Below are positions 1 to 338 of a DNA stretch of 338 nt, piece by piece (positions within the stretch are counted from its first letter, which is position 1; each line of letters starts with the position of its first letter). This DNA is from Escherichia coli. Its GTDB lineage: Bacteria > Pseudomonadota > Gammaproteobacteria > Enterobacterales > Enterobacteriaceae. A program made the translations under genes and the position numbers. The notes beneath the pieces were generated by a model, which was not told the DNA's origin, made no database searches, and saw only the letters and a program-made list of their open reading frames with translations. The stretch lies in the NCBI RefSeq assembly GCF_003334335.1, contig NZ_QOWQ01000215.1. One strand, 5' to 3'.

Positions 1-338
1 CCATACAGCACGGCATTCACCGCCTGCATTTCTTCCACCTGGACAATGGCGTGCTCTTCCTGTTTGAGGTTATCGGTGATGATACGCAGACGACGGTAGG
101 TCGGGTCGTTCAGCTGCGCCGGATCTTCACCGGGAAGGCGCTCCACCGCCTGCTGGTAATTAAATTCGTGTTTCGGCTTGACGTAGCCCGGACGTAACAC
201 GCGGGTTTCACCACCACGATGACGCAGCACTTTTCCTTCAACAACCGGGGAGACATAGGCTGCCACCGGCGTTTTTCCGGTAATTTTGTCCAGCATCACC
301 TCTTCGGTGTGGAAATTCACCGTACGGCGGAAAAACAG
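1..338 (-). CDS. E: Major capsid protein, lambda gpE family (internal fragment, truncated at both window edges); N-terminus lies beyond position 338, C-terminal ~200 codons beyond position 1
   Basis: Seen in sequence: the reverse-complement frame with codons at + 336-338 down to 3-5 is open for all 112 codons; the other two minus-strand frames hit stops within the first ~35 codons, and all three plus-strand frames contain stops. Translation: LFFRRTVNFHTEEVMLDKITGKTPVAAYVSPVVEGKVLRHRGGETRVLRPGYVKPKHEFNYQQAVERLPGEDPAQLNDPTYRRLRIITDNLKQEEHAIVQVEEMQAVNAVLY. Established knowledge (recalled, not searched): lambda gpE residues ~26-137 read LFFRESYPFTTEKVYLSQIPGLVNMALYVSPIVSGEVIRSRGGSTSEFTPGYVKPKHEVNPQMTLRRLPDEDPQNLADPAYRRRRIIMQNMRDEELAIAQVEEMQAVSAVLK. 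The two are collinear with no gaps, about 66/112 identical. Codon usage (CTG, CCG, GCG, CGT preferred) is typical of enterobacterial genes and lambdoid head genes. Confidence 0.85.
   Translation of the reverse strand, partial: MFFRRTVNFHTEEVMLDKITGKTPVAAYVSPVVEGKVLRHRGGETRVLRPGYVKPKHEFNYQQAVERLPGEDPAQLNDPTYRRLRIITDNLKQEEHAIVQVEEMQAVNAVLY

Follow-up and report, generated by a model that had tools for sequence, protein, structure and literature searches.

Conservation of two lambda-identical residue blocks encoded by a phage-21-type major capsid gene fragment

Two short runs of amino acids encoded by the 338-base stretch of DNA analyzed here (hereafter, the window) recur unchanged in gpE, the major capsid protein of phage lambda. 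The original prediction had read both of them, PGYVKPKHE and QVEEMQAV, as invariant signatures of the gpE family. The question raised by the locus is whether residues shared by one pair of proteins are also residues that the family at large retains and, where they are, which part of the capsid protein they occupy.

Identity of the gene

A single one of the six reading frames of the window is open. This frame, minus-strand frame 0, runs for 112 codons without a stop (positions 3-338, minus strand, bases 1-2 being a partial codon), and the five others all contain stops. Its product is LFFRRTVNFHTEEVMLDKITGKTPVAAYVSPVVEGKVLRHRGGETRVLRPGYVKPKHEFNYQQAVERLPGEDPAQLNDPTYRRLRIITDNLKQEEHAIVQVEEMQAVNAVLY. 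Two mechanically called ORFs of 48 residues each (plus strand, 51-197, and minus strand, 110-256) overlap the capsid frame and were dismissed as shadows of it, without independent support. Megablast comparison with phage records showed the window to be identical, over all 338 bases, to the gene annotated "major capsid protein E" in Escherichia phage PhiR5_1, and 94% identical, again over all 338 bases, to gene 7 of phage 21. The PhiR5_1 gene has 342 codons, of which the window comprises codons 26-137, and lies within a canonical lambdoid head module in the order Nu1-A-W-B-C/Nu3-D-E-FI-FII. The fragment matches the Pfam family Phage_cap_E (PF03864) with an E value of 3.8e-18 at model positions 22-127 of 329; the full-length protein, identical over the window, matches the entire model (positions 1-329 of 329; E = 4.8e-66). 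A match to PHROG 2353, "major head protein", was obtained at 2.6e-65, and no NCBIfam model matched the capsid protein. Thus, the window derives from a lambdoid phage or prophage of the phage 21 type and carries a fragment of its gene for the major capsid protein, an HK97-fold member of the lambda gpE family (PF03864). The assignment made in the original prediction was correct, as borne out by the Phage_cap_E match and by the placement of the structural model on gpE in Foldseek searches (see below).

Of 5426 complete E. coli genomes, 1909 contain the segment, in up to five places per genome. Most of the genomic copies are 95-99% identical to the window; copies with 100% identity occur in O104:H4 and FORC strains. 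The window is merely an allele of the phage 21/PhiR5_1 capsid gene, a common prophage gene. Gene, family and fold are already established, as are several solved structures; the finding is an ordinary one and its overall importance is small. Among E. coli prophages, heads of the phage 21 type are very common.

A 1.5-kb record named "phage ECO111 5-P" is also 100% identical to the window at the DNA level. Two database entries carry the name "Escherichia phage ECO111 5-P", OR844803.1 (1498 bp) and OR844767.1 (59207 bp), but their E-family capsid genes are not the same: one matches the window with 100% identity, whereas the other, which is chi/Casjensviridae-like, reaches only 30% in a protein comparison. 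An induced lambdoid prophage was probably present in the sample along with the isolated phage.

Conservation of the two blocks

The lambda gpE sequence used as the reference was that of NC_001416, positions 6135-7160. BLASTP aligned the product of the window to it without gaps, with 66 identical residues out of 111 (59%); the full-length proteins are 61% identical with one gap, and the DNA of the window is 61% identical to that of lambda. The figure of about 40% divergence given originally is therefore accurate. So is the location of the two blocks, both of which are encoded by the minus strand: PGYVKPKHE (block 1; positions 165-191) corresponds to residues 75-83 and QVEEMQAV (block 2; positions 18-41) to residues 125-132, each identical to the same residues of gpE.

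Conservation was evaluated in three samples. A HMMER search of 1.84 billion cluster representatives returned 1231 relatives at E ≤ 0.001; alignment A1 was made of 71 full-length proteins with 27-46% identity, taken from the best 150 of these 1231, together with the query and lambda gpE, a provenance by which conservation in the more distant members is under-sampled. An independent sample of 16 annotated capsid genes, with 23-61% identity, was picked from a spread tblastn listing of 433 phage records, and these cultured phages gave the same conservation picture as alignment A1. Finally, a sample of close relatives comprised 73 proteins at 58% identity or above. All relatives among the matches listed by the homologue search lie at or above this value, which makes that listing informative for the clade and not for the family.

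The core of block 1, residues 75-81 (positions 171-191, minus strand), ranks first among the 336 7-mers of the protein in mean information content, and the complete 9-mer ranks 6 of 334. In the 71 representatives, the residue of the query is kept at K79 in 100% of the sequences, at Y77 in 96%, P75 in 95%, K81 in 85%, P80 in 73% and V78 in 64%. The weak positions of the block are G76 (9%, with Ala in 76%), H82 (35%) and E83 (19%). The codon for Lys79 (positions 177-179, minus strand) specifies a residue that is invariant throughout the 73 sequences of the family alignment, a property shared by P56, R92 and W170. Among the cultured phages, N15 and phi80 keep PGYVKPKHE, PGYAKPKHT is the version in Aeromonas phage PhAER-5 (46% identity), and PAY[VLIT]K[PDL]x that in Casjensviridae and other distant members; the solved homologues read PGYMKPKHE (3BQW) and PAYVKPKHV (YSD1 and Chi). 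Both Y77 and K79 are lost in Vibrio phages R20L and X29 (PPMVGPR) and in Clostridium phage Saumur (PPLVAPD), so that Lys79 is replaced by Gly or Ala in these three distant cultured phages. Hence, the core of block 1 is near-invariant, not invariant, and PGYVKPKHE is the lambda-clade spelling of the most conserved motif of the family, P-[A/G]-Y-V-K-P-K. As a description of the whole nine-residue block, "invariant" was too strong a word; the claim of a family signature holds for the core and gives way at residues 76, 82 and 83.

Block 2 presents a different picture. The residues of QVEEMQAV are kept, in order, in 14%, 4%, 45%, 89%, 5%, 14%, 77% and 30% of the 71 representatives. The family consensus at residues 125-132 is RREEWMAA, and only E128 (89%) and A131 (77%) of the query residues hold. 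Mean identity to the query across the block is 0.32, which is also the mean for the protein as a whole, and ranks 137 of 335. The same columns rank 27 of 335 in information content, the conservation being toward RREEWMAA. Among the solved homologues, YSD1 and Chi have TWEWMAAQ at the corresponding place, and 3BQW has RVEWLAVN. Cultured phages N15 and phi80 have QVEEKQAV, PhAER-5 has QLEEHQAV, and distant members have x-R-x-E-W-M-A-A. The protein belongs with the lambda/21/N15/phi80 subclade in that its identity to lambda or 21 is at or above about 56% and its sequence conforms to Q-[VIA]-E-E-x-Q-A-[VTS]. It is this clade that QVEEMQAV marks, not the family, and its proposed role as a signature of the E family must be abandoned. 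The inspection of a family alignment that had been suggested as a check thus separates the two blocks: across the 71 representatives, block 1 has a near-invariant core and block 2 is not conserved beyond its clade.

Other positions in the window are conserved like the best residues of block 1: F28, A51, P56, G60, G67, R92, G95, E96 and R107. Several of these are in the region around block 1 (in alignment A1, A51 93%, P56 100%, G60 95%, G67 95%, R92 100%, G95 97% and E96 92%), and the window contains P-[A/G]-Y-x-K-P-K, P56, R92 and G95-E96 all together. Toward the C-terminus of the protein, an M-T-Q-S-A-P-L block rivals block 1 in family-wide conservation.

The suggested use of the blocks in primer design or motif searches was put into practice by scanning IMG/VR with degenerate DNA patterns for P[GA]YVKPKH and QVEEMQAV and checking the ORFs with the A1 profile. 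The first pattern occurs at no fewer than 120 loci, and all 120 matches listed are in E-family ORFs, with identities to the query ranging from 24% to 99%. The second likewise occurs at no fewer than 120 loci, and 119 of the 120 matches listed are in E-family ORFs. The sole false positive among them is an unrelated ORF of 104 residues on the minus strand of locus L146, ...NKEQVEEMQAVLDGKRF... Block 1 can thus serve as a probe at the family level, within those members that retain the His residue, and block 2 as a probe for the clade; the idea stands for the former and, for the latter, only in this narrower sense. In practical terms, E-family capsid genes can be probed for specifically, and over a fairly broad range, with P-[A/G]-Y-V-K-P-K(-H).

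Could the blocks be invariant signatures throughout the E family after all? Their identity in lambda and in the window speaks for it, and so does the presence of PGYVKPKH in 72 of the 73 close relatives (where residue 83 varies among E, Q, R and D). However, QVEEMQAV is found exactly in only 43 of the same 73, the E-family matches to its DNA pattern are all at least 56% identical to the query among the matches listed, and the percentages given above for residues 76, 82 and 83 and for Q125, V126, M129 and Q130 are too low for such a reading. Alignment A1 and the cultured phages already refute it at residues 76, 82 and 83 and in block 2, and as a statement about both blocks we regard it as very unlikely. 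A view at the opposite extreme is that the two runs merely reflect matches that cluster by chance between two proteins with 59% identity, with no special constraint behind them. When the 66 matches were redistributed at random among the 111 positions, 31% of the trials produced a run of nine or more, and 7.7% such a run accompanied by a second one of at least eight. Lambda-shared runs as long or longer also exist outside the window, in PhiR5_1 residues 216-236 and 313-337: EKLDTRRGSNS (11), LETAVKDLG (9) and GDPAREFTM (9). At this level of identity the runs are not statistically significant; the two by themselves provide no evidence of special constraint, and their status as signatures rests entirely on the family alignment. 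The point is of methodological value: runs of identity between just two proteins, when these are about 60% identical, are no evidence of family-wide constraint. Chance clustering agrees with the average retention of the block 2 residues, but not with the top-ranking information content of the block 1 columns in 71 divergent representatives or with their recurrence in the solved structures of 3BQW, YSD1 and Chi; the block 2 columns, too, are moderately conserved, but toward a different consensus. For block 1, this explanation, which the pair alone does not allow one to reject, is rejected by the family alignment; for the two runs jointly we consider it improbable.

Lambdoid phages are known mosaics, and the two blocks might also be patches of shared DNA left by recent recombination between lambda-type and 21-type head genes. 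At the DNA level the blocks are indeed 23/27 and 20/24 identical to lambda, above the 61% average of the window. However, an absence of amino acid changes in the blocks suffices to raise DNA identity, and 8 of the 17 block codons carry a synonymous difference from lambda, a proportion similar to that found elsewhere (28 of the 66 codons for residues identical in the window as a whole). Furthermore, the same protein motif is found in phages with 24-46% identity. The synonymous differences inside the blocks argue against a recent exchange with lambda and indicate that identity was kept at the protein level; of the explanations considered, recombination is the one to which we give the least credence.

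Some database entries encountered among the relatives deserve mention. In the 254-kb jumbo-phage record of Aeromonas phage AP1 (MT713136.1), a stretch of 245 bp matches the E. coli phage capsid gene with 98.4% identity. Located at about 250152-250396 (2925-3169 of locus L217), the stretch runs from the base preceding the capsid start codon to a break inside the PGYVKPK codons; it falls in an unannotated gap near the end of the record, at which the G+C content rises abruptly from about 0.40-0.48 to 0.53-0.61. It has the look of a chimeric assembly or a contaminating fragment, not of a real gene transfer. A 517-residue protein designated "Major head protein [Bacillus thuringiensis Sbt003]" (P0022) contains a lambda-like capsid (61-63% identity in two matched stretches) behind an N-terminal extension of about 176 residues, and its UniRef cluster, comprising 205 taxa, is labelled "cellular organisms". 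Contamination with lambda DNA or a mis-called fused ORF probably accounts for it. In other proteins, the capsid domain is fused to a second Pfam domain: PF14000 (P0005, P0100, P0105 and P0110), PF02924 (P0101) or PF06141 (P0097, named minor tail U family protein by its source). These fusions are likely to be frameshift or gene-calling artefacts in short contigs.

Predicted structural placement and proposed role of the motif

An AlphaFold2 model of the full-length PhiR5_1 protein was built on alignment A1 (mean pLDDT 91.5, pTM 0.88). DSSP analysis of the model identified N-arm strands at residues 30-33 and 39-44, further strands at residues 68-73 and 81-84, and a 34-residue helix at residues 104-137, which is the putative spine helix of the P domain (positions 3-104 of the window, minus strand). 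The best Foldseek matches of the model are lambda gpE chains, with TM-scores of 0.82-0.86, followed by 3BQW, Chi and YSD1. In the HK97 fold, an N-arm is followed by the E-loop, the spine helix and then the P and A domains (see also PMC5701804). By this order, the window would take in the last part of the N-arm, followed by the E-loop and the spine helix. Combined with the predicted secondary structure, it places the E-loop region at approximately residues 51-100 (positions 114-263, minus strand), with the conserved sequences A51-x-[FY]-V-S-P56 and R92-x-x-G95-E96 as its borders. Lying between strands 68-73 and 81-84 and ahead of helix 104-137, PGYVKPKHE is probably in the E-loop, where it would form the turn at the tip of the hairpin (P-G or P-A) and the beginning of the strand that runs back. 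QVEEMQAV maps, in the model, to the C-terminal half of the spine helix. Being three residues apart, E128 and A131 are expected on one face of this helix, and probably lie there.

In capsids of the lambda/chi type, the E-loop and the N-arm build an intermolecular sheet that interlocks each capsomer, and at the threefold axes two loops of a neighbouring subunit clamp the extended E-loop; a gpD-type trimer docks over the clamp and gives the sheet a fourth strand (PMC7385642; PMC5701804). Searched for residue-level contacts of gpE 75-83 and 125-132, the full-text literature (the lambda capsid structure paper excepted) yielded only general descriptions of the E-loop, the clamp and gpD. We postulate that block 1 is kept by purifying selection on assembly contacts of the E-loop, namely the capsomer interlock, the threefold clamp and the decoration trimer. 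The coupling of the motif to these contacts is suggested by its predicted position, and we hold it with moderate confidence. The six residues of block 2 other than E128 and A131 would represent a lineage-specific solution that lambda, 21, N15 and phi80 have by common descent. Taken as a whole, the reading that combines the identity of the gene, an E-loop motif under assembly constraint in block 1 and a lineage variant in block 2 appears to us the best explanation, with a probability of roughly 0.85.

The gene order in PhiR5_1 is D - E - FI, the flanking genes being outside the 338-base window. Of the 16 other phages, 13 have a gene annotated as decoration protein immediately upstream of their capsid gene, down to 23% capsid identity, and an unannotated gene occupies this place in the remaining three. 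The decoration-capsid order holds from 100% to about 23% capsid identity, the Clostridium phage included. R20L, X29 and Saumur, which are without Y77 and K79, yet have a decoration gene directly upstream of the capsid gene; the motif is thus not strictly tied to the decoration architecture. One may speculate that Lys79, in the K-P-K sequence near the E-loop's tip, does more than pack and is a specific docking determinant for the N-terminal strand of a gpD-type protein or for the threefold clamp, and that the switch of the whole clade from RREEWMAA to QVEExQAV reflects a lineage-specific change in scaffold interaction or in the mechanics of maturation in lambda-type heads; we consider these ideas unlikely.

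Comparison with known capsid proteins

HK97 gp5, the archetype of the fold, has the same order of elements as the protein analyzed here, and the latter has no detectable membership in its sequence family: a Pfam scan of the full-length protein gives Phage_cap_E only. Capsids of the lambda type are stabilized by a decoration protein and not by Lys-Asn isopeptide crosslinks (PMC5701804).

The capsid proteins of YSD1 (6XGQ), Chi (8VJI) and an E. coli CFT073 prophage (3BQW) share the Pfam family and the fold, with 26-47% overall identity. The E-loop motif is kept in YSD1 and Chi as PAYVKPKH and in 3BQW as PGYMKPKHE, whereas the spine-helix block of all three differs from QVEEMQAV. YSD1 has a decoration protein of the gpD type (PMC7385642). 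Closer still is lambda gpE (PDB 7VI9, 7VIK and 8K39; PF03864), which contains both blocks unchanged and superposes on the model with a TM-score of up to 0.86, although about 40% of its residues differ from the product of the window and the DNA is only 61% identical.

The nearest relatives are phage 21 and PhiR5_1. Their head genes are arranged in the same order, their capsid gene presents no difference of note from the window, and gp7 of phage 21 is 96% identical to the window-type protein. From this degree of identity, the window-type protein would be expected to build a T=7 capsid shell.
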